From Bernardetia sp. ABR2-2B (GTDB lineage: Bacteria; Bacteroidota; Bacteroidia; Cytophagales; Bernardetiaceae), in contig NZ_CP147020.1 of assembly GCF_037126435.1 (NCBI RefSeq), positions 1,907,293 to 1,971,292 of the forward strand: 64,000 nucleotides of DNA, in the 5' to 3' direction. This document shows, piece after piece, positions 3,056-14,546 of the stretch. The notes under the pieces were generated by a model. That model searched no databases and was not told the origin of the DNA. It worked only from the letters and a program-made list of their open reading frames with translations. The position numbers and the translations under genes were made by a program. How positions within the stretch are numbered: position 1 is the first letter of the stretch; each line of letters starts with the position of its first letter.

Positions 3056-5170
3056 TTACTTCTTACTAGTAATTGTAAAATAGTCTTTTGCTATTATTTC
3101 TAAATATTCGTGATACGGACTTAGTTTGGGGAGCGCATTTTTTATTTTCAGATATAACTGCTCTGCATAAAGTTTGTCATTTTTTCCGATTGCTTGTGAT
3201 AACTCTGTTAGATAATCATCCATAATAGGCGATATTTCGGTTACGTTTCCTAACAAACGAGCCAATATTTCACTAATTGTCCAAGCCCATGGCATTCCTT
3301 CCATCAGTAGAGGATGAGCAATAATGCGCTCATCTTCCCATTCTAAGGAAATTATATTATTTGATGCCATCGATTGAATCATAAATGGACTTTGCGTTCC
3401 CACTATAAACTGCGTATTTGGAAACACTTCTGAAAGACGAGGAATGAGTGTGCGCTGCAAATTAGGACTTAAATGAACATCAATCTCATCAATCAAAACG
3501 ATTGCTTGTATGCTTTCTGGATATTCTATATCAAAAGGGTGTTGGATAGCTCGTACGCACAAATCCAAAATCCAACTAAAAACAGTCTGAAAACCATCTG
3601 ACATTGCTGAAATAAGGGATTCTCCAGAGGATGTTTGAAAGACAAAATCTCCATCTTTATTTAACCCCAAAAGTCCTTGTTCTAATTTTTCATCTTGTTC
3701 GTTTTCTGTAATATTTGAAGGAGGAGCAAGTAAACGATTTACTATTTTTCGAATGGGTTCGATATTGTTTTCTATGAAACTATAAGTGCTATGGTCATCC
3801 TCGCTTTTTAGAAATCCATTTTCTCCAAACAAAGAAGCAATAGGCGCAAAGGTACGATGCTGAAAATCATAGTTTCGAAGCCCTCTTTTTCCTGTACTAT
3901 ATCCCAAAACCATTAAATTTTCACGTATTATTTCAAAATAACGGCGATGACTTCCCGTGTTCATTACTCCATTTCTATCAATCTTAAATTTGATATTTAC
4001 TTCCTCTCCAAAACCTTGCAGACGAAGCACCAAATGCCCTACTTTTTTATCTCCATGAACTACATTTTCCCATCCATAATTAATAGGTGGTTTGGGAATA
4101 TTGGCTAATCCTAATGCAATAAGTTGAAGGATAGTCGATTTTCCTGTTCCATTTGTTCCGACAATGAGCGTGATATTTTCTTTCGTGTGAATATGAGGTA
4201 AATCAATAGAAAGTTTATCAAAACAACGGATATTTTTGATAAACATTGACTCCAAAATAAGCGTGTTATCTTCACTTGCTCGTTGTTCTTCTGGAAAATC
4301 AATATTTAAAAAAGGCGTAATTGTTTCGATAAAATGAACCTGTACTTGTTCCAAAACACGCATAACTTCAAAATCTTCACACTCATCAATAAAAAAGTAT
4401 TCAAAATTAAAAAGCATATTTTTCCCCATCATTGCATGTGGCGTTCTTTGTGCTGCCATTGCATTGAGTTCTGTCAAAATAGGTTCAAAATGCTCTTTTA
4501 ATAGTGAAACTGGTACTGGATAGCGAACAGTATTTTCTAAAAGGTTCTCAGCAGCTTGATAAAGTTTTTGGGTAATATCACGTATGATTCGATGACGAGC
4601 TACTGCCGACGAACCCATATTAATTTTATATGCCGTAATGGTAGAAGCTGCACGTAAATTTCTTTTGATAGGTTGCAAATTCCCCTGCCTATCAATAGCT
4701 ATATATTTTTCAGGAACATCTAATTCTGGATTGATAATCAGTGGATCTTCTGCCAAATGAATATCTGAATCTGCTCTCCAAAGCGTTCTGTCTTCAGGTG
4801 GTTTCTTGACTCGCTTGTGTTTATTCATTATCGGAAACTGACTATCCTCATAAAGTTTGCATTCTTCACAAACAGGTAAAAGATTTGTCCATTCGTAAAT
4901 AAGCCAATAATAAAGCTCTGGCGAACGGTAATGTGTCAAGAAAGCTGTCGATTCTTCAATAGAAATTCCTACTTCACAAAAGGCACATTTATTATAATGA
5001 ATTTCAAGAAGTTTGCCCAACACGTTTTCATGCATCAAAATATCCAAACGAGGGTATCCCACAAACTTACCTATCTCCAAAAGTGTCTGAATAACATTTT
5101 CAGTTTCTGGAGATTGTAAAATAGCTGGAATATCATTTGGATTTTTTCGTACTGAAATCATAGGGAGCAA
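3056..5170 (-). CDS. HNH endonuclease domain fused to ABC-type (AAA_15/21-like) ATPase; Septu (PtuB+PtuA)-like single-polypeptide defence candidate
   Basis: N-terminus: 'CAFCE...LTHYRSP...WTNLLPVCEEC' (CxxC...H...N...CxxC HNH, TIGR02646-like). Middle: Walker A 'GTNGTGKST'. C-terminal part: Walker B/D-loop 'VLIDEIDVHL' and 'TQSP' signature-like motif. Confidence 0.6.
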   Translation of the reverse strand: MLPMISVRKNPNDIPAILQSPETENVIQTLLEIGKFVGYPRLDILMHENVLGKLLEIHYNKCAFCEVGISIEESTAFLTHYRSPELYYWLIYEWTNLLPVCEECKLYEDSQFPIMNKHKRVKKPPEDRTLWRADSDIHLAEDPLIINPELDVPEKYIAIDRQGNLQPIKRNLRAASTITAYKINMGSSAVARHRIIRDITQKLYQAAENLLENTVRYPVPVSLLKEHFEPILTELNAMAAQRTPHAMMGKNMLFNFEYFFIDECEDFEVMRVLEQVQVHFIETITPFLNIDFPEEQRASEDNTLILESMFIKNIRCFDKLSIDLPHIHTKENITLIVGTNGTGKSTILQLIALGLANIPKPPINYGWENVVHGDKKVGHLVLRLQGFGEEVNIKFKIDRNGVMNTGSHRRYFEIIRENLMVLGYSTGKRGLRNYDFQHRTFAPIASLFGENGFLKSEDDHSTYSFIENNIEPIRKIVNRLLAPPSNITENEQDEKLEQGLLGLNKDGDFVFQTSSGESLISAMSDGFQTVFSWILDLCVRAIQHPFDIEYPESIQAIVLIDEIDVHLSPNLQRTLIPRLSEVFPNTQFIVGTQSPFMIQSMASNNIISLEWEDERIIAHPLLMEGMPWAWTISEILARLLGNVTEISPIMDDYLTELSQAIGKNDKLYAEQLYLKIKNALPKLSPYHEYLEIIAKDYFTITSKK

Positions 5171-5337
5171 TTACGAATTAAAAATTATGGATTACGAATG
5201 TAAATCACTGAATACAAATAATTTAAATTATTCAGCTTAATAGATTCTTTTTCCTAATTTAATTAACAACGAAGCATTAATAATTGAAAACTAATTATAC
5301 TAAAAAATAAATAACTATTAATGATTTAATTTTGGAT

Positions 5338-5883: not shown

Positions 5884-6984
5884 TTATTTCATTTTTGCTA
5901 ATTGCTGACTGCGTTCGGCTTCCATTGATTTAACCCACGCTTCATACTTTTCTGGACTCATTTCTCTAAAACCTAATTCTTCCATTTTAGCATTTACTTC
6001 TTTGAATTTTCGATAGTTTTCTTTCAACCAAGCATTTTCGTAGTTACCGTTTTTCTTCTGAAAAGCAACTCCAAAATGTCGTAATGTATTGCTTTTTGCT
6101 GCCAAACTAGGAATACAAGTGGGAAAATAAATTAAAGAAGTATCCAAACAAGCCAAACCAAATTTTGAATAACCGTACTGACTTTCATAAGCTGTTTCTA
6201 GCATTTTCAAACAAAAAGCAATATCTTCTTTTGGACTTAACTCTTTCATATAAATTCCTTTTCTGATACTTTCTGCTGAAATATCCATGGAAGAAATCAT
6301 CCAACTATCTGATGAAAAATTGCCGTTGGTAAGTTCTATATTTACCCATTTATTTTGCTCGTCTAAATGCTTGATGTACATGTGATTGGGTCCGAGAGCT
6401 AGATAAGCATTTGCTTTTATTTCATTTGCTAAAATCTTATATAAAATAGGCATCGAACGGCATTGTCCTTCATGTGTCTTTAAGAGTTTAGAAACAAACA
6501 TACTTCTATGGTCTTTTTCTCCATAAAAATCTTCAAAGTCATACGTATAAGGCTTATAATTATTCATTTTGTGAGGTTTTGTAAAAAACTCAAAAAGAGC
6601 ATAATTTCCTGCTGTTTTATAAGTAGAAATCCCTTTTGCTGCCACAAACTTGTTTAGGTCTTTTGCTATTTTATCTATCTGATTACAAAATTCTGTATAA
6701 TCTAACTCTCCTCCAGAATATGCCCATTCTACCAAAAAAACAGCTCGTTTGAAGTCAAGAGGGATTTTATCCAAAAGCATTTGATTAATTTCTTGAAAAG
6801 CAAGATTGTAATATTTGTTATCTGTATGAACAACAGAAGAATCAAATTGAAATTTAGAAATAGTTTTTTCTATTTTAGTTTCTATTGTTTTAATAGATTC
6901 AGTTTCTGTTTTCTTTTCTTCAATATTTTGAGAGCAGGAAAAGCAGAACAAAAACAGTATAATATAAGAATAATTAATTTTCAT
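5884..6984 (-). CDS. gldB: Gliding motility lipoprotein GldB
   Basis: Lipoprotein signal 'FLFCFSCSQN'; ~360 aa; located directly upstream of gldC. Assignment rests on size and synteny, not a strong motif. Confidence 0.5.
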   Translation of the reverse strand: MKINYSYIILFLFCFSCSQNIEEKKTETESIKTIETKIEKTISKFQFDSSVVHTDNKYYNLAFQEINQMLLDKIPLDFKRAVFLVEWAYSGGELDYTEFCNQIDKIAKDLNKFVAAKGISTYKTAGNYALFEFFTKPHKMNNYKPYTYDFEDFYGEKDHRSMFVSKLLKTHEGQCRSMPILYKILANEIKANAYLALGPNHMYIKHLDEQNKWVNIELTNGNFSSDSWMISSMDISAESIRKGIYMKELSPKEDIAFCLKMLETAYESQYGYSKFGLACLDTSLIYFPTCIPSLAAKSNTLRHFGVAFQKKNGNYENAWLKENYRKFKEVNAKMEELGFREMSPEKYEAWVKSMEAERSQQLAKMK

Positions 6985-7411
6985 ATTTCACGAATACTTT
7001 TACATTTACACATAATTTTTTGACCTTTCTTTCTTTTCGCAATCTTAAAGTATATTTATCTTTTGAGCTTGATGTAAATCTTAATCCTGTATAATACTTA
7101 TCATTTATTTTAGTAGTTACGATTACAGAATCATTCTTTATTACTTCTAAATATGTTCCTTTACTGAGTCTTTTATTGTATGTAGTATAGTCGTACATAG
7201 ATATAGAATATACTTTTCCACTATCTAAATCAATATCCCATTCTGCAAAAGGCTTGAAATAAAAATCGTATATTTCTTTACTATCATACACAACTCTTCT
7301 AGAAGGGAGAGAAACACTCCTTAAGTCATTAATATACTCTTTTTTACACTGTTTGTTTATCGAACAACCAAATATAAATAGAGAAATATATAATAAAAAT
7401 AAAGGCTTCAT
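6974..7411 (-). CDS. Small lipoprotein, paralogue of 7417-7881 (candidate orphan immunity protein)
   Basis: Signal 'LYISLFIFGCS'. C-terminus '...YTLRLRKERKVKKLCVNVKVFVKYEN' parallels '...YLFELRQDSKSKPLCYNIIVFIKDK' of the neighbouring gene. Confidence 0.5.
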   Translation of the reverse strand: MKPLFLLYISLFIFGCSINKQCKKEYINDLRSVSLPSRRVVYDSKEIYDFYFKPFAEWDIDLDSGKVYSISMYDYTTYNKRLSKGTYLEVIKNDSVIVTTKINDKYYTGLRFTSSSKDKYTLRLRKERKVKKLCVNVKVFVKYEN

Positions 7412-7416
7412 GATAG

Positions 7417-7881
7417 TTATTTATCTTTGATAAACACAATAATATTGTAACATAAAGGTTTTGATTTAGAATCTTGTCTTAGTTCAAATAGATAATTTCC
7501 ACTCTGTTTAGGAGTAATCGTAATTCCCCAAAAATATCTATTATCTATTTTGCTACTGCTTATAAATTCATTATTGAGCTTTAAATTTAGAAATACCTTG
7601 TATTTAATAAAGGAATCAGTAGTATAATCACCATATATTCTAGCTTCATAAGCTTCTCCTTCCTTTAAGTTGAGAATAATATCTTCGCTAGGTTTAGCAT
7701 GGTAACTGTACTTAGGTGTGAAACCAACTATTCCTTTTCTAGATGTTAAGGTGTATAAAATTTTTCTTTTTTTATACTTAGTAGCACAATCTGGGTGACA
7801 AGCTATTTGACAAAGAGATAATAGTAAAAAAAAGAATATTATTTTCGTTTTTTGTGAGTATGATCTGACTCTGGATTCCAT
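7417..7881 (-). CDS. Small lipoprotein, paralogue of 6974-7411
   Basis: Signal 'IIFFFLLLSLCQIAC'; shares C-terminal block with neighbour; tandem arrangement. Confidence 0.5.
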   Translation of the reverse strand: MESRVRSYSQKTKIIFFFLLLSLCQIACHPDCATKYKKRKILYTLTSRKGIVGFTPKYSYHAKPSEDIILNLKEGEAYEARIYGDYTTDSFIKYKVFLNLKLNNEFISSSKIDNRYFWGITITPKQSGNYLFELRQDSKSKPLCYNIIVFIKDK

Positions 7882-8089
7882 TTATTTTTTGTTTAAGCCG
7901 TTGTCGGTGTCCCCACCGACGACTTTTAACTTTCAAAATAGGTGTAAATTCGGATAAAATTAGCGAGGTGCAAAAATTGTCAGAGAACCTTATTGCTTTA
8001 CTAATAGTTTCTTTTTCTTGTGTTTTTGTCTGACAAGAAAACAAGAAAAAAAACGTAACAAGTATTAATTTAACTCTTATAAAAATCAT
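7882..8089 (-). pseudogene. Possible remnant of a third small lipoprotein gene (signal peptide plus ~40 aa, then runs out of frame into next gene)
   Basis: ORF 7778-8089 begins 'MIFIRVKLILVTFFFLFSCQTKTQEK' (lipoprotein signal) but overlaps 7417-7881 by ~100 nt in another frame. A GC-rich hairpin 'gtcggtgtccccaccgac' lies at ~7905-7925. Confidence 0.2.
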
Positions 8090-8100
8090 TAATTTTTAAT

Positions 8101-8586
8101 TTAATCAAATACTGGAAATGATATAACATCTATATTATTTTGGGATTGAATAATTCTAGTAGCATATACTAAAGTATATGGATAAGAGCTATTTTTTTTC
8201 TTCAAATTTTCTATATCCCACGATGAAGTAAGATGTATAGTTTCATTTGAAAACCGACATATATCTGCAATTTCACCTTTTTCTTTGAAATAAACATAAT
8301 TAATAGTATCACTATAACTCCAAATGGAAGTAAAAAATCGTCCATTCTCATCTTCAAAACTTTCTAACAAAAATAAAGTATCACTCTTTAAGAAAGCTTT
8401 AGATTCTAATTCTTTAAAAAGACTTAGCCTAACTTTGTGAAAATAATTATAATTTATTTTTAATATTTTTTGTTCAATTTTTTTATTTTTTATATTATAT
8501 GATAATCTATTTAGATAATTAAAATCTTTTTTACAAGAAAAAAGGTAGAAAAATAGCACTATAATAATTCTTATTTTTTGTTTCAT
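8101..8586 (-). CDS. Lipoprotein, hypothetical; candidate immunity protein for upstream toxin
   Basis: Signal 'VLFFYLFSCKKD'. Start lies 2 nt downstream of the toxin gene's stop, on the same strand. Confidence 0.45.
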   Translation of the reverse strand: MKQKIRIIIVLFFYLFSCKKDFNYLNRLSYNIKNKKIEQKILKINYNYFHKVRLSLFKELESKAFLKSDTLFLLESFEDENGRFFTSIWSYSDTINYVYFKEKGEIADICRFSNETIHLTSSWDIENLKKKNSSYPYTLVYATRIIQSQNNIDVISFPVFD

Positions 8587-8587
8587 C

Positions 8588-9721
8588 TCAGTAAGTATAT
8601 CTATTTTTAGGTCTTCCTATTGAGTTAAAATTTGTACTTCCATCATTTCTATAATACAAAGATTGACCATTGTCTAATATACGAGTATCTTCATTATTTG
8701 TGCCATCTGCTCCTACTGAATAATATTGTCTAAGAGGTAAACCTTGTTCTTTTCTTATCATGTTTTCAACGTGAGTGGCATATATTTCAGCATACGGAAT
8801 ACTTTTATTTTGACCGTTAGCAGTAAGAACTCTTGTCCAAGTATTTCTATTTATAGTTCCGTTCTTAATATCTTCTACATGAGCTAACTCATGACCTAGC
8901 ATGACATAATTTTTAGTTTCCGTAATCCCAAATTCATCTGCACCTGTAAAAACATCTTCTGAATTCCACTTGACATAAGTGCCATTCTTCATATCTGCAG
9001 CACTACCTCCACTAGTTGATATAATATTTATAATTTCAGAAATAGATGTAAGCCCTTCTACTAAAGAACGTCCCCTATTTCCTTCTCTAAGTTTGCCAAG
9101 CGATGCAGTTAGTTCAAGAACAAAACTGTCATTACCTGAGTATGTTTCTCCTGTTTCTGAACTTATAAAAGCAAAATCTCCATTAGCATTTTTATCATAA
9201 AACCATCTCTCATTTTTTCCAGTTGTAGAACCATCCTCTAGAGTTATAGTAGAAGTTGTAGTAACGACAATACTATCTCCATTTGGATCAATATTTCGTA
9301 TCGGATTGTTACCTACAAAGTTATAAGGGTTTAAATCTGGATATTTATGTGCTAACCTATCTATACTCAAGAAACGAGCAAAGTTATCAGTATCAAGAAA
9401 TGTCTCTTTTATTAGATTATCTTTTTCATCAAAGGTACGCACTCTACCCAAATACAAGTCCAATTCTATTTTTGCAACGTTTCCATTTTTAATATCAAGG
9501 CTATGCTTTCCATTTCTCTCAGCTTCACTCATCAAAACAAAAGAGCTATCTCCAAACATCGCATAAGGACTTTGGTTTTTAGTTTCTGTGTTTCGAAACT
9601 GCGTGTTTTCTTTTCCAAATTCAAGATTAGAAGTAGTTTTATTATTGTTTTCTTTGCTAGAACATCCATAGAGAAATGTTGCACCTACTAGCAAAGCAAA
9701 AACGAATATTTTGTAGTTCAT
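8588..9721 (-). CDS. Polymorphic-toxin-like lipoprotein: RHS-core terminal motif plus HExxH zinc-metallopeptidase C-terminal domain
   Basis: Lipoprotein signal 'LLVGATFLYGCSS'. 'ARFLSIDRLAHKYPDLNPYNFVGNNPIRNIDPNGD' matches the RHS-core end consensus (RFLSxDP...NxYxYxxNNPxxxxDPxG). C-terminal ~230 aa contain 'MLGHELAHVED'. Confidence 0.6.
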   Translation of the reverse strand: MNYKIFVFALLVGATFLYGCSSKENNNKTTSNLEFGKENTQFRNTETKNQSPYAMFGDSSFVLMSEAERNGKHSLDIKNGNVAKIELDLYLGRVRTFDEKDNLIKETFLDTDNFARFLSIDRLAHKYPDLNPYNFVGNNPIRNIDPNGDSIVVTTTSTITLEDGSTTGKNERWFYDKNANGDFAFISSETGETYSGNDSFVLELTASLGKLREGNRGRSLVEGLTSISEIINIISTSGGSAADMKNGTYVKWNSEDVFTGADEFGITETKNYVMLGHELAHVEDIKNGTINRNTWTRVLTANGQNKSIPYAEIYATHVENMIRKEQGLPLRQYYSVGADGTNNEDTRILDNGQSLYYRNDGSTNFNSIGRPKNRYTY

Positions 9722-9786: not shown

Positions 9787-12513
9787 TTACTCCTCCATTT
9801 CCCTCAAAATCCCCACCGTTTCGACACTCACTCTACACACTTTTCTCAAAAGCTCAATTAGCCTCTCTTTTTGATTATCAAAAGAATAAGTGGTAAAAAC
9901 TCCTTCTTCAACAGCTTTTTTGACAGTTTTATCTCTCAATTTTCGTTCGCTATGGTGTTCCAAAACCCACTCTAAAGCAGAGCGCACACCCAAACGATAA
10001 TGCCATGCTTCTTCTGGAATATTTTTCAGATAGGTTGTTTCATCAATCCAAACTAAACTGCGAACTCTGTCAGCTTTTAGAATGGCTTTTTTCTTAGATT
10101 TTTTTTCGGATGGATAACTGTCCACCTCTACTTTTTCAGACGAACGGCTGTTCGTCTCTATCTTTTCTTCTCGCTCTAAAGGATAAATAATAGCCTCTTC
10201 ATAATTGAGATGCAGATTTAATAATTTTTCTCCCCACGTTGCCCACTTCCAAAAATCTTCATACATCGGAATTCGTGGTAGTTCGGTATGGAGTATTTTT
10301 TCGTACTTTTTACGGTATTCTGGTGAGTGCAAAACGGCATAGATATAAGCAAAAATGGTATCTTTTGTCAAGGTTCTTGCCTCCACTTGATTGTCTTTCA
10401 TAGACTGCAAACTCTTCTTTAATTCCTTAAAGTTTTTTGCCTTAAATTTTACAGCCTTAGAAGAATAATGATGACGAAACTGCTCTAATGCCCAATCCGT
10501 AATATTTTCTTTAAACTCATTTGTTTCTTCATCAAAAAAGTATTTGGCAAATGTGTGCGTTGCTCTTGCACCGTAACCATTATCGGGAATAAAATTAGTA
10601 GCGTGAACTACCAATGGAACTTGTTTATGAACTGTAACACAAATAGTCGGATTTGGAGTTTGCTCTTTTTGAAGTGGAAAAAAACGAAATTGCTGATAGG
10701 GACGATGTGTAATTACCTCATCTACATATACAAACTGCTTTACAAAAGGGCGATAAGAAGCTTCCCTAACCTTGAAAGAATCATAATTTGTTTCTAAATT
10801 TCTTTTGAGGTTTTGAATAAGCTCTGCGTTCCATTTTATTTTGGCTTCCTTTATTTCTGACTTTACTCCTAAAAAACTTTGTAACGATTCTTTTTGGTCA
10901 GAATTATGCCACTTTTTGCGTTCTTCTTCATAAATCTGACTAAAATAACTTGCTTTTTTTTCTAAATTATCTTTATCAAAATCATACATCCATTCGTCTC
11001 TAGCCGTCAGAAGTGCAGGAGAAGCCCATTTGAAAAGTGCTGTTTCTTCATCTGCAAACTGTGCTGTTTGGGTAGCCTTGTGAGACAGAGGCATAAAACC
11101 TAAAAAATCATCTTCTGGAAGTGCAATCCAATAATTTACAGCTTGACTTACTTTTTTGAACGATAGATTTTGAAATTGTGTGCGTGAAAGAGCTTCTCCA
11201 AAATTCTTTAATGATTTGAAGTTTTTGGTAGGTTTCCAATAATAAACAGGGCATTGAGAACGCAAATGAGCCAAGCGAAAACCATTTGAATAATTATTTT
11301 TATTCTTTCTAACCAAAAAAAGCAATGCAGACTCATTTTCTTTTCCACTAAAAGCCTTTGTATTGTCTTTTTCATTTTTTGATAATTCTGATTTTTCTTC
11401 AATTATATTGGTTTGGCTTTCTTTTTCTACATTTTTATACTCCAAATCCATTACATAAATGCTATCAAATTCGGCTTGTACTCTCTTTCTAAAACCTTCA
11501 TAGGTAGGCGCATGTAAAACAACAGAGGGAAGCCAAACAGCAATAACGCCTTTTTCGGTAAGCCTATCAGTAGCCCAACGTACAAAACGCAAAGGCACAG
11601 GAGAAAAGGCATTTTTTTCATAAATAGGTGTATAAGCTGCCATTACACGGTTATCGATGGCAGCAAAATCAACCTCTTGACTTGTTTTGCTACTTCCTTT
11701 ATCTTTATTATTTTCACTAAAAATAAATTGATTTTGTTGGCTAGTTTTGAAAGAATTTCCGACAATGATATGATAACGAGCATCAATAGAACGGTAAAAC
11801 TCTTGTGCTTCACTTTCCTGTGAGCCAAAAAGTAATGTTTGTTTCGGCACATCCACAAAGTAGGCTGCGTTTGCCCAAAAGATAGGCTGTGAATTATTAG
11901 AGTTGTTATTTAGACTAACTTTCCATAAATAATATGACCAAATAGAAAGTGTACAGGTATAAGACTGACCGACAGAAGGCTGAATATCTTGAAAAAAAGT
12001 ACCTTGATAAAGTGAAGGAGCTTCAAGATTGGCGATAGATTGCTGAATAAAACTTGCAAACTCTAAAGGAGCAACACCTACTTCAAATTTGCGTTGCCAA
12101 TGGACAATAATTTGTTCTTTTTTAGTCTTAGAAAGACTAGTAGAAATTTCTTTTAAAGACAGGCAGTATTTTTTCCATTGTTCTAAAAATCCATTCTTAA
12201 AAAAAACAGAAAAAGCATCTAGTTTTTGAAAGACAGTATCTTTTTTTATAAAAAAGTTATTTTCTAATGGTGTAGAGCTTTCCGTAAAAAATAGACTTTC
12301 TACTAAGGGAAATACAATTTGATGTGATAGAATAGCCGTTTTGAGTAAATTCTCATCAGGCAGACTATGAAACTGAGAAGCAAAAGCACCCAAAGAACGA
12401 TAAGCAGAAGTCTGACGAATTTTATTTTTATCAAATTCGTCTTGCAAAGATGCTATCAAATTATCAATAGCAAAAAAGGTAGGGATTTCTATATTTTTAT
12501 TCTCAAACTTCAT
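9787..12513 (-). CDS. Large (908 aa) protein with type ISP/IIG-like C-terminal block; MTase catalytic motif not evident
   Basis: C-terminal 'IFAYIYAVLHSPEYRKKYEKILHTELPRIPMYEDF' recalls the conserved C-terminus of Type ISP/IIG MTase-REase fusions. 'VIAVWLPSVVLHAPTYEGFRKRV' is a motif-V-like block. Where NPPY/F would sit there is 'IIVGNSF'; no helicase or FxGxG seen. Confidence 0.55.
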   Translation of the reverse strand: MKFENKNIEIPTFFAIDNLIASLQDEFDKNKIRQTSAYRSLGAFASQFHSLPDENLLKTAILSHQIVFPLVESLFFTESSTPLENNFFIKKDTVFQKLDAFSVFFKNGFLEQWKKYCLSLKEISTSLSKTKKEQIIVHWQRKFEVGVAPLEFASFIQQSIANLEAPSLYQGTFFQDIQPSVGQSYTCTLSIWSYYLWKVSLNNNSNNSQPIFWANAAYFVDVPKQTLLFGSQESEAQEFYRSIDARYHIIVGNSFKTSQQNQFIFSENNKDKGSSKTSQEVDFAAIDNRVMAAYTPIYEKNAFSPVPLRFVRWATDRLTEKGVIAVWLPSVVLHAPTYEGFRKRVQAEFDSIYVMDLEYKNVEKESQTNIIEEKSELSKNEKDNTKAFSGKENESALLFLVRKNKNNYSNGFRLAHLRSQCPVYYWKPTKNFKSLKNFGEALSRTQFQNLSFKKVSQAVNYWIALPEDDFLGFMPLSHKATQTAQFADEETALFKWASPALLTARDEWMYDFDKDNLEKKASYFSQIYEEERKKWHNSDQKESLQSFLGVKSEIKEAKIKWNAELIQNLKRNLETNYDSFKVREASYRPFVKQFVYVDEVITHRPYQQFRFFPLQKEQTPNPTICVTVHKQVPLVVHATNFIPDNGYGARATHTFAKYFFDEETNEFKENITDWALEQFRHHYSSKAVKFKAKNFKELKKSLQSMKDNQVEARTLTKDTIFAYIYAVLHSPEYRKKYEKILHTELPRIPMYEDFWKWATWGEKLLNLHLNYEEAIIYPLEREEKIETNSRSSEKVEVDSYPSEKKSKKKAILKADRVRSLVWIDETTYLKNIPEEAWHYRLGVRSALEWVLEHHSERKLRDKTVKKAVEEGVFTTYSFDNQKERLIELLRKVCRVSVETVGILREMEE

Positions 12514-12634
12514 TAAAAACTACTCCTTTAATTCTGTCTCATTTTGGTTTTAAAATCTAAGAACAAAACTACAAAAGATTATTCTATTTTTAATGAGTTT
12601 TATTGTTTGTTTGTCGAAGAGCGTAGAGTTTTTA

Positions 12635-13450
12635 TCAAAACAAACTACCTTGAGTAATTGGGTTAGGAGGAAAAACACCAATGATTACAAAAGGATTGGA
12701 AGCTCTATAATGATGAATTTTAGTTGTTCCCAAAAACAAATAAATATCTTTTTTCTTAGCAAACGAATCAAAATATTTCTTCTCAACATCTTTACAAGCC
12801 TTTAGTTTATCTCCATCATGTCTTTTTAGACAGTTCCAGTATAGTTGTCCTATCTCCCAATCCTCAATCATCATTTTTGTGGTTTTCCCATTACTATCTT
12901 CCCATTGATAAGAAAACTTGTAAGGCAGTTTCTTTACTACTTTAAAATTGTCATTTTTTACACTTCCAAATAAATTCATTTGCTTCATTGCTTCTAATTT
13001 TCTTGAATCCCATTCATCTTCTACTTTTTCGTAAATAAACTTATGAATTTTTGTGGGCTTAAAAACAGCTAAAGATGTAGATACAGCCCTATCTTTAGCT
13101 TCTCCAATTAGAATAGACAAATCTGTGTAAACGTTTTTTAATACTATTTCTCTACGTTTTTTCCACGTATTACCATCTGCTAGGATTTCTCCTACTTTTT
13201 TTATTTCTGTATCTTCAGAATGAGGTCTATAACTTTCTGGACGTGGGTCACTTGTATTTTTGACTAAATCTATTTCTATCCATTCATATTTTTTGTATTG
13301 GTCTTTGTATGATTTTTTTCTAAACTGAATAGGATAAATACGTATCCATGTTCCGTCTTCTCTGAAACCTGCTGTACATACTAATTCGTCATATTTTACA
13401 GAAATAGTAGGATAGGTTTTTACTGTTATTAATACTTTTTCAATAGCCAT
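12635..13450 (-). CDS. Hypothetical protein (271 aa), middle gene of three-gene operon
   Basis: Start ATG lies 2 nt after the stop of the upstream gene (translational coupling). No motif recognised. Confidence 0.55.
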   Translation of the reverse strand: MAIEKVLITVKTYPTISVKYDELVCTAGFREDGTWIRIYPIQFRKKSYKDQYKKYEWIEIDLVKNTSDPRPESYRPHSEDTEIKKVGEILADGNTWKKRREIVLKNVYTDLSILIGEAKDRAVSTSLAVFKPTKIHKFIYEKVEDEWDSRKLEAMKQMNLFGSVKNDNFKVVKKLPYKFSYQWEDSNGKTTKMMIEDWEIGQLYWNCLKRHDGDKLKACKDVEKKYFDSFAKKKDIYLFLGTTKIHHYRASNPFVIIGVFPPNPITQGSLF

Positions 13451-13452
13451 AT

Positions 13453-14394
13453 TTATAGATTTTGATGAGGAATGTCCCAGTTTTCTTGATTTATTATATT
13501 CTTCAGTACAACTCCTCTATGGCACATACAAACCTCTTTTTCAAAACAAGTAAGTGCAATTCTAGAATATTCATTTATGTAATCGTTTATCAGAAGTAAA
13601 TACTCTTTATTTTCTTTTAAGGTTGTTTTTTCATACTCTTTAAATAAAATATCATAATCTTTCTGATTGTTCAATTTTTGTCTTTTAGAAGATACAATTC
13701 CTAATTGTGGAATATGTAAATATTCGATTCCTACAGCTTCACAAGCACTTTTAAGACGGTTTTTTGAAAATCCATATTTCATACTCAATGGGTTTTTTCT
13801 AACATCACAAAGTAGCTTTACATCATTAATAATTAATTTATTGAGATATTTTTCTAAACTAACACCTTCATAACCAATTGTAAACACTTTTTGCTCTTTA
13901 TAATTTCTCTTTTGTTCATTTACTTTTTTTAGCTCTTCATCAGATAATAATCTTTCAGCAATCTGACTTTTTGTAGCAAAAAAGGGGTACTTAATATAAG
14001 TATGTTTTACTAATTTGTTTAGGGGCAAAAATTCTATTTCTTTTTTTATATCTAATATAAACTGCTTATCTTCTTTATTCAATTTATAAACCATTGAATC
14101 ATTCTCTATCAACTTCCAAGTAGATTGGTTATTTTTTGTTTCTTTTTCTATCAATCCATATTTCGAAAGCGTATTTAAATCTTGATTTGCTTGAAAAGAA
14201 TAGCAACCATATTTGTAAGGTACAAAATCATAAGATTTTTTAGTTTGTAAACGTGTTACAAGAAATAAAACTTTTTGTAGATAAGTATTTGATAATTCTC
14301 CTTCAAAAATATCTAAAATAGATAGAAGCAATTTACGACGATAATACATAATGAAAACAAATTTTGAAAAACAGTCAGCTAATTTAATTAGCAA
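13453..14394 (-). CDS. Fusion protein: N-terminal Panacea (DUF4065)-like domain plus C-terminal DUF488 domain
   Basis: C-terminal half 'FTIGYEGVSLEKYL...LLCDVRKNPLSMKYGFSKNRLKSACEAVGIEYLHIPQLG...IALTCFEKEVCMCHRGVV' matches DUF488 conserved blocks. N-terminal half 'KVLFLVTRLQ...YDFVPYKYGCYSFQANQDLNTLSKYGLI' resembles Panacea/SocA-type domains. Confidence 0.6.
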   Translation of the reverse strand: MLIKLADCFSKFVFIMYYRRKLLLSILDIFEGELSNTYLQKVLFLVTRLQTKKSYDFVPYKYGCYSFQANQDLNTLSKYGLIEKETKNNQSTWKLIENDSMVYKLNKEDKQFILDIKKEIEFLPLNKLVKHTYIKYPFFATKSQIAERLLSDEELKKVNEQKRNYKEQKVFTIGYEGVSLEKYLNKLIINDVKLLCDVRKNPLSMKYGFSKNRLKSACEAVGIEYLHIPQLGIVSSKRQKLNNQKDYDILFKEYEKTTLKENKEYLLLINDYINEYSRIALTCFEKEVCMCHRGVVLKNIINQENWDIPHQNL

Positions 14395-14546
14395 TTTATT
14401 AAAATTTTCTAAAGATAACTAATATTATTTCAATTTTGACAAAGCGAAGAAAACCAAACACAATTTATACAGTTTTGCAAGAATATTTTTTATTCTCTAA
14501 TTTTAAGCAAGAATAATCTAAATTTAAACTAATTCAAGCAAAACAC

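Follow-up and report, generated by a model that had tools for sequence, protein, structure and literature searches.

A candidate PDC-M19 cassette inserted beside a resident Type IIG/ISP-derived gene in Bernardetia sp. ABR2-2B

Introduction

Three consecutive genes on the minus strand of Bernardetia sp. ABR2-2B, here called g1, g2 and g3, raise the question of whether they form a single defence system or have become neighbours independently of one another. They lie in a 64,000-nucleotide stretch of contig NZ_CP147020.1 (assembly GCF_037126435.1, positions 1,907,293 to 1,971,292), referred to as a whole as the window, and all coordinates given here are positions within it. A sequence-only reading of the window, made from the letters and the translated open reading frames (ORFs), had proposed that the three genes make up an uncharacterised three-gene defence operon situated in a defence island. 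We put the probability at roughly 60% that the locus instead holds two independent units: a mobile two-gene cassette of the type catalogued in PADLOC as PDC-M19 (g1 and g2), acting as a nucleic-acid-directed conflict module, and a vertically inherited gene, g3.

The genes are as follows:
13453..14349, minus strand: g1 (PDC-M19A), 298 amino acids (aa), starting MYYRRK; DarG-C-terminal-like winged-helix domain and DUF488 domain
12635..13450, minus strand: g2 (PDC-M19B), 271 aa, predicted tandem OB-fold protein
9787..12513, minus strand: g3, 908 aa, degenerate gamma-class methyltransferase-like region and Type ISP/IIG C-terminal domain; outside the cassette

All three co-directional ORFs were confirmed on the minus strand at the coordinates first given for them, except for the start of g1, which had been placed at a TTG codon (14394); this is too far upstream, as the NCBI annotation (a 298-aa 'DUF488 family protein') and all homologues use the ATG at 14349. 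The stop of g1 and the start of g2 do stand 2 nt apart (13453 and 13450).

Results

The pair and g3 are distributed independently

Relatives of g2 were sought in one genome per species, which gave more than 556 loci, and the best 80 of these were used for neighbourhood analysis. In 78 of them g1 lay directly upstream of g2, the remaining two being cut by contig ends, and g3 was present in a single one, the locus of a metagenome-assembled genome named Flexibacter (L001), which is the closest relative of the window (81–91% identity). Eight Bernardetia-type loci were then compared (the window, L001, L081, L083, L084, L085, L086 and L087): the pair stands beside g3 in three (the window, L001 and L085) and g3 occurs without it in five (L081, L083, L084, L086 and L087). 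In Bernardetia litoralis and four other assemblies, g3 lies between an AsmA-dihydroorotase block and a sigma-70 gene, with the pair absent. The three genes therefore do not co-occur as a system, an outcome that the sequence-only reading had itself named as one that would speak against it.

The space between the dihydroorotase gene and g3 is occupied as follows:
L081 (B. litoralis): NgoPII restriction-modification system, heavy-metal ATPase and 218-aa ORF
L086: heavy-metal ATPase alone
L087: heavy-metal ATPase and small ORFs
L083: 207-aa ORF
L084: nothing
Window (12514-14546), L001 and L085: PDC-M19 pair

Among the Bernardetia-type genomes examined, this slot acts as an insertion site with variable contents. 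The two units also differ in the sequences that precede them:
12514..12634, minus strand: 5' region of g3, conserved and g3's own, containing TAGTTTTG at 12571..12564
14350..14425, minus strand: upstream region of g1, which goes with the g1-g2 cassette; presumed promoter region

All eight Bernardetia-type loci, five of which lack g1 and g2, share about 115 nt of conserved sequence 5' of g3, running from ACGCTCTTCGACAA to the ATG, and this block keeps an invariant TTTTGTAGTTTTGT and the motif AAGACA.AA..AAAG despite a synonymous divergence of 0.5–0.9. The g2 stop codon abuts it. The Bacteroidetes -7 promoter consensus is TAnnTTTG, which TAGTTTTG matches and TTTTGTAGTTTTGT contains; the block is probably a promoter and possibly a regulatory leader. 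A sigma-70 promoter scan was set aside as uninformative for a Bacteroidota genome, and the g2-g3 interval gave no terminator in a simple scan. On the other side of the pair, some 75–85 nt 5' of g1 are the same in L085, where the upstream gene encodes a heavy-metal ATPase and not a dihydroorotase, and the pair brings its own upstream sequence with it. The description of the locus as an operon holds for g1 and g2 but probably not for g3, which is separated from g2 by a 121-nt spacer bearing a 5' block that is kept in genomes lacking the pair.

In L001 the whole segment is inverted with respect to its flanks, including an upstream 864-aa ORF found at the position of the L085 heavy-metal ATPase gene. 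The adjacency of g1, g2 and g3 across this inversion was rejected as evidence of linkage: the end points lie outside the whole block, and since the inversion spans the entire segment, the retained adjacency is uninformative on function.

The ratio of non-synonymous to synonymous substitution (dN/dS) in g3 is 0.10–0.13 over its whole length, with dS at 0.54–0.90, and the adjacent dihydroorotase gene gives a dS of 0.54–0.87 and a dN/dS of 0.06–0.12; by these estimates g3 evolves like the neighbouring housekeeping gene, under purifying selection. The G+C content is 0.29 for g1-g2 vs 0.35 for g3. From distribution, synteny, the g3 5' block, the pair's own upstream sequence, dN/dS and G+C, we regard g1-g2 as an inserted cassette and g3 as a resident and vertically inherited neighbour with a conserved 5' region of its own.

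The pair belongs to a catalogued candidate system

The proteins encoded by g1 and g2 match the PADLOC models PDC-M19A (PDLC04505; 3.2e-118, model positions 1-293 of 294) and PDC-M19B (PDLC04508; 1.1e-123, model positions 1-269 of 269), respectively. PDC systems are 145 'phage defence candidates' drawn from genes embedded in known defence systems ('guilt-by-embedding'; Payne et al., bioRxiv 10.1101/2024.01.29.577857). They entered PADLOC as predictions, the experimental tests having covered the HEC candidates only (bioRxiv 10.1101/2024.01.29.577857). The gene combination had been thought to be without a name, which is incorrect for g1 and g2, although the view of them as a tightly coupled pair and an uncharacterised candidate defence or conflict system is upheld. 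Judging by the model matches, the pair is an ordinary member of the two-gene candidate system PDC-M19.

A palindrome, GCTAATT-A-AATTAGC (arms 7+7), is located at 14392..14378 on the minus strand, 29 nt 5' of the g1 start, and L085 has a counterpart (GCTAAT-CAA-ATTAGC) in the same place. As a candidate autoregulatory operator it was rejected: across 70 upstream regions the best palindromes had a mean arm length of 5.5 vs 5.2 in shuffled sequences, and the 7+7 of the window falls within the null range.

Domains of g1 and g2

The domains of g1 are:
13906..14349, minus strand: N-terminal domain, approximately residues 1-148; DarG-C-terminal-like, Panacea-related
13504..13857, minus strand: DUF488 domain, residues 165-282; invariant GYEG, D-R-K-N, TCFE and C-H-R

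DUF488 had been recognised correctly (Pfam PF04343, 6e-22, 78.9 bits vs a cut-off of 22.2) and is matched in 28/28 relatives. In the AlphaFold2 (AF2) model of g1 (pLDDT 89.7) this domain has a predicted phosphatase-like fold (PTP/rhodanese-phosphatase), and its invariant residues are Glu, Arg, Cys, His and Arg. As background, DUF4326 is predicted to process terminal ribose phosphates of ADP-ribose derivatives (PMC9503650).

The best structural match of the g1 N-terminal domain in the AF2 model is the C-terminal domain of DarG. Weak PADLOC and NCBIfam matches of g1 to DarG cover DarG positions of about 160-260, and therefore concern the part of DarG that binds DarT and is not the macrodomain. 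The same domain had been called Panacea-like. Pfam SocA_Panacea (PF13274) gave no match to the window g1 at E<=10, and 15/28 relatives gave sub-threshold matches (best E 0.0069). The GPV signature of Panacea is reported to be critical for neutralisation (PMC8832971); it is not kept in g1, where the corresponding stretch reads 'PYKYG(C/S)(Y/F)SF' with the G alone retained. The Panacea call holds only weakly, the DarG C-terminal domain being closer to the domain of g1 than a bona fide Panacea domain is.

No Pfam or NCBIfam family was matched by g2, in agreement with the absence of a recognisable motif reported for it earlier. Its AF2 model (pLDDT 81) matches over its full length the Teb1 AB tandem OB pair (Foldseek E 5.9e-4, probability 0.98), and g2 is accordingly modelled as an RPA/Teb1-like tandem OB-fold protein; no ADP-ribosyltransferase fold is present among its top structural matches listed. 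Membership of Pfam DuOB was rejected, the matches being sub-threshold only (0.002 in distant homologues and, for 2/45 family members, >=0.05), and a literature search on DuOB gave unrelated papers only. The g2 family comprises 2,439 clusters at 50% identity. Domain fusions were considered as a clue to function and yielded none, as each of the top 150 among the 2,439 representative clusters is a stand-alone protein of ~270 aa. In 45 diverse members P14, E22, C25, A27, R37, D68, R70, D197, W198 and E199 are invariant, a pattern that resembles an active or ligand-binding site more than it does a passive binder.

The pair on chromosomes, plasmids and phages

The 482 ORFs neighbouring the pair in the 80 genome loci fall into 434 clusters, and the flanks are therefore hypervariable. 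Some of these neighbours are Type I S subunits, Type IIG methyltransferases, ResIII, HEPN-type DUF3644 and reverse transcriptases, which is suggestive of a conflict context. Relatives of g2 with 30-35% identity are found on plasmids of Rhizobium, Burkholderia, Pseudomonas, Streptomyces, cyanobacteria and Sulfolobus, and are also encoded by seven Gordonia phages. A DUF488 gene adjoins the g2 relative in most of these plasmids and phages, in arrangements differing from that of the window: the two genes are convergent and overlapping in Rhizobium pRL8, Burkholderia pYS1 and a Streptomyces canus plasmid, and in Calothrix the DUF488 gene lies downstream and is co-directional (order B then A).

In Gordonia phages of the Nymphadora type, gp43 is a PDC-M19B protein (2.5e-48) and overlaps by its start with the stop of gp44, the gene of the immunity repressor; gp42, convergent with gp43, is identified by tblastn (1e-12 to 2e-17) as a DUF488 protein. 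One Gordonia phage record annotates the DUF488 protein gp42 as 'HipA toxin'. In Gordonia phage Nymphadora the genes are located at:
4813-5265: gp42, Gordonia phage Nymphadora (L088, NC_031061)
3968-4822: gp43, same genome

All 7 Gordonia phages of this group carry the DUF488 and g2-type pair, in the region of the integrase, repressor and Cro. In IMG/VR, a DUF488 ORF is found <=300 nt from the g2 relative on 77/78 contigs, and 32 of the DUF488 ORFs are long (~310 aa, with the N-terminal domain) and 46 short (~150-220 aa, DUF488 only). The core conserved in evolution therefore consists of DUF488 and the g2 protein, and the N-terminal domain of g1 is optional.

A homologue of g2 (E 5e-19) adjoins a tyrosine recombinase on plasmid pSOG2 of Sulfolobus islandicus (L089, 3495-4361), an archaeal conjugative plasmid. 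The overlapping downstream ORF of 168 aa was rejected as a DUF488 protein (hhalign probability 0.2%, not detectable). Two Sulfolobus plasmids are counted among the carriers of the pair or the g2 family, which is very common and is also found in many bacterial phyla and in temperate phages. On this comparative evidence g1-g2 is a self-contained, widespread and mobile two-gene cassette.

A gene derived from Type IIG/ISP restriction enzymes

Two features of g3 are referred to here:
9850..11037, minus strand: Type_ISP_C domain (Pfam PF18135), residues 493-888
11749..11760, minus strand: 'GNSF', residues 252-255, at the position of methyltransferase motif IV (NPPY)

The resemblance of g3 to Type ISP enzymes, its degenerate NPPY motif and its lack of helicase and nuclease motifs had all been noticed from the letters, and each of these observations was borne out. 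Type_ISP_C is matched at 2.3e-81, and residues 222-908 align with the Type IIL enzyme DrdV (7lo5, 3.7e-68) and with LlaGI (5ffj) and LlaBIII (4xqk); the PADLOC matches are confined to the C-terminal portions of Type IIG and Type I fusion enzymes. When g3 is aligned to 7lo5 with HMMER, its 'IIVGNS-F' stands opposite DrdV 'IIGNPPY', and GNSF is invariant in 14/14 g3 orthologues. No helicase, nuclease or methyltransferase model was matched in Pfam, PADLOC or NCBIfam, and the S-adenosylmethionine-binding half (motif I loop) is unrecognisable, with no match to a methyltransferase hidden Markov model.

Homologues of g3 number 14 in a collection of 5.8 billion proteins, all of Bernardetia type and with 80-87% identity, the next match being a helicase-bearing Type ISP enzyme with 24% identity. 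The orthologue in L001 (11025-14015; P0242) has an insert of ~90 aa made of 'SCSSEKVET'-like repeat units, which sits in the acidic linker between two conserved C-terminal blocks; this linker therefore tolerates large changes in length.

Neighbouring conflict genes

A 704-aa protein (3056..5170, minus strand) is a single-chain Septu fusion of PtuB (HNH, residues 4-266) and PtuA (ATPase), matched over its full length by PADLOC PDLC00292 (4.6e-56); in L085 a 696-aa ATPase gene is syntenic with it. A 377-aa protein (8588..9721, minus strand) combines a lipoprotein-type signal with a Peptidase_M91 effector domain (4.7e-13). After its gene come four to five small ORFs of no family, of which 7417-7881 and 6974-7411 seem paralogous by eye, and the resulting block (5884-9721, minus strand) looks like an inter-bacterial toxin and immunity insert. 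In L085 a different and shorter segment is found between the g3 orthologue and a GldC-like gene. The Septu fusion and the Peptidase_M91 toxin mean that the neighbourhood does hold conflict genes, although interleaved with core genes; the claim of a defence island is accordingly sustained by these two genes nearby but not by the immediate flanks of the locus, which are housekeeping genes (dihydroorotase and AsmA).

Discussion

The pair is most likely a nucleic-acid-directed conflict module, and a role in defence or abortive infection seems to us slightly better than an even bet. The OB protein would bind single-stranded nucleic acid or DNA ends, either those of an invading element or, if it acts as a toxin, those of the host, and the DUF488 enzyme would then process a terminal sugar-phosphate or adduct on the bound nucleic acid. 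In the long form of g1, the DarG-like domain may tether the two proteins together, and the g1 of the window version has gained this N-terminal domain, homologous to the DarT-binding part of the DarG antitoxin. Overall, the pair would work as a conflict module, whether in phage defence, in abortive infection or in the manner of a toxin-antitoxin system. As for g3, it descends from one half of a Type IIG/ISP restriction enzyme, that of the methyltransferase and the C-terminal specificity domain, and does no more than border the variable slot that received the cassette; judging by its motifs, its most likely role is DNA binding, with no canonical methyltransferase activity.

Several observations weigh against this combined view of the cassette and g3. 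A literature search returned no paper naming PDC-M19 and none giving DUF488 an experimental role in defence, and most of the genes neighbouring the pair are non-defence genes. In g2 a catalytic domain is not recognisable, and OB folds are the only informative structural matches. A classical toxin-antitoxin operon rarely has the convergent orientation seen in several phyla, and no operator-like palindrome 5' of g1 is generally conserved in the family among the 70 upstream regions. With regard to g3, residues 1-220 match nothing, profile search included, and its putative loss of methyltransferase activity is read from motifs alone.

The best-surviving alternative, which we nevertheless consider unlikely, is that g1-g2 is a plain addiction module stabilising mobile DNA with no anti-phage role, g2 being the toxin and g1 a DarG-like antitoxin that binds it and enzymatically reverses its action. 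The antitoxin-like gene does come first, with a gap of 2 nt, its N-terminal domain is homologous to the DarT-binding domain of DarG and the pair is found on conjugative plasmids and prophages; however, more than half of the DUF488 partners are without the DarG-like domain, the genes are convergent in several phyla and g2 is without a known toxin fold. Many characterised toxin-antitoxin systems, DarTG included, also defend against phage (PMC9503650), so that the addiction and defence roles are not exclusive.

Rather less probable still is an accessory module for the repair or processing of DNA or RNA ends, which would be no conflict system, would pair an OB-fold single-strand binder with a phosphatase-like enzyme that cleans ends, and would be used by mobile elements for their own replication. 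Such a role would suit the RPA/Teb1-like tandem OB fold of g2 and the phosphatase-like fold of DUF488, as well as those phage and plasmid copies that lie near integration and replication genes, but it sits poorly with the patchy and hypervariable chromosomal context, with the embedding of the pair among restriction-modification genes and with the Gordonia phages, in which the pair occupies a lysogeny/immunity cassette overlapping the repressor gene and not the replication module.

A single Bernardetia-specific system of all three genes, with g3 co-opted as the DNA-recognition subunit for the pair, is largely refuted by distribution and strikes us as highly improbable: all three Bernardetia-type genomes carrying the pair have it immediately 5' of g3 (the inverted L001 included) and the simple scan saw no terminator between g2 and g3, but g3 is without the pair in five genomes and the pair without g3 in 79/80 loci, g3 retains its own conserved upstream block, the L001 adjacency is uninformative with the inversion covering the whole segment, and the three genomes are close relatives (81-87% identity).

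Returning to the two independent units, a more specific version of this reading can be put forward only tentatively. The pair might be a new immune module: a tandem-OB protein would recognise the single-stranded DNA or DNA ends of the invader, and chemical modification of those ends by a phosphatase-fold enzyme would follow, such as the removal or transfer of a terminal phosphate or adduct. Separately, g3 would be a domesticated, catalytically dead restriction-enzyme module that the Bernardetia lineage keeps for sequence-specific DNA binding. If so, invader DNA with altered ends could not be ligated, replicated or packaged; we know of no characterised defence system that works by such end alteration. 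Handles for experiments are offered by the core of DUF488 and tandem-OB protein, by the DarG-type tethering domain present in some versions and by the invariant enzyme-like residues of both proteins. The Type ISP-like g3 is at the same time removed as a false lead to a third subunit, and as a restriction-enzyme derivative that selection appears to maintain despite degenerate catalytic motifs it is a modest curiosity in its own right.

Comparison with known systems

In PDC-M19 the two proteins match the models end to end and their genes are adjacent in the order A then B; the pair of the window shows no structural difference from this, being an ordinary member, and g3 is no part of the system.

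PanAT systems (Panacea/DUF4065/SocA; PMC8832971) are similar in that a gene with an antitoxin-type domain adjoins a partner gene. However, the partner is hyper-variable there and constant in g1-g2, and no match of the g1 family reaches the Pfam threshold.

With DarTG the likeness lies in the N-terminal domain of g1, where a counterpart of the DarT-binding C-terminal domain of DarG is found. The macrodomain of DarG is replaced by DUF488 in g1, with the domain order reversed and no Macro match, and many members of the g1 family are missing the DarG-like domain altogether. The partner differs too, DarT (DUF4433) being an ADP-ribosyltransferase and g2 a predicted tandem OB protein.

With the Type ISP, IIG and IIL enzymes g3 shares the C-terminal half of the methyltransferase and the C-terminal domain, which the name of PF18135 describes as a specificity domain. 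Type ISP enzymes additionally possess a superfamily-2 helicase-like ATPase and an Mrr-type nuclease, neither of which is detected in g3, and LlaGI and LlaBIII are longer (1406-1578 aa vs 908 aa). In DrdV-type enzymes motif IV is NPPY, whereas g3 has GNSF. Finally, g3 is not mobile, being both fixed and syntenic among the Bernardetia-type genomes that were examined.

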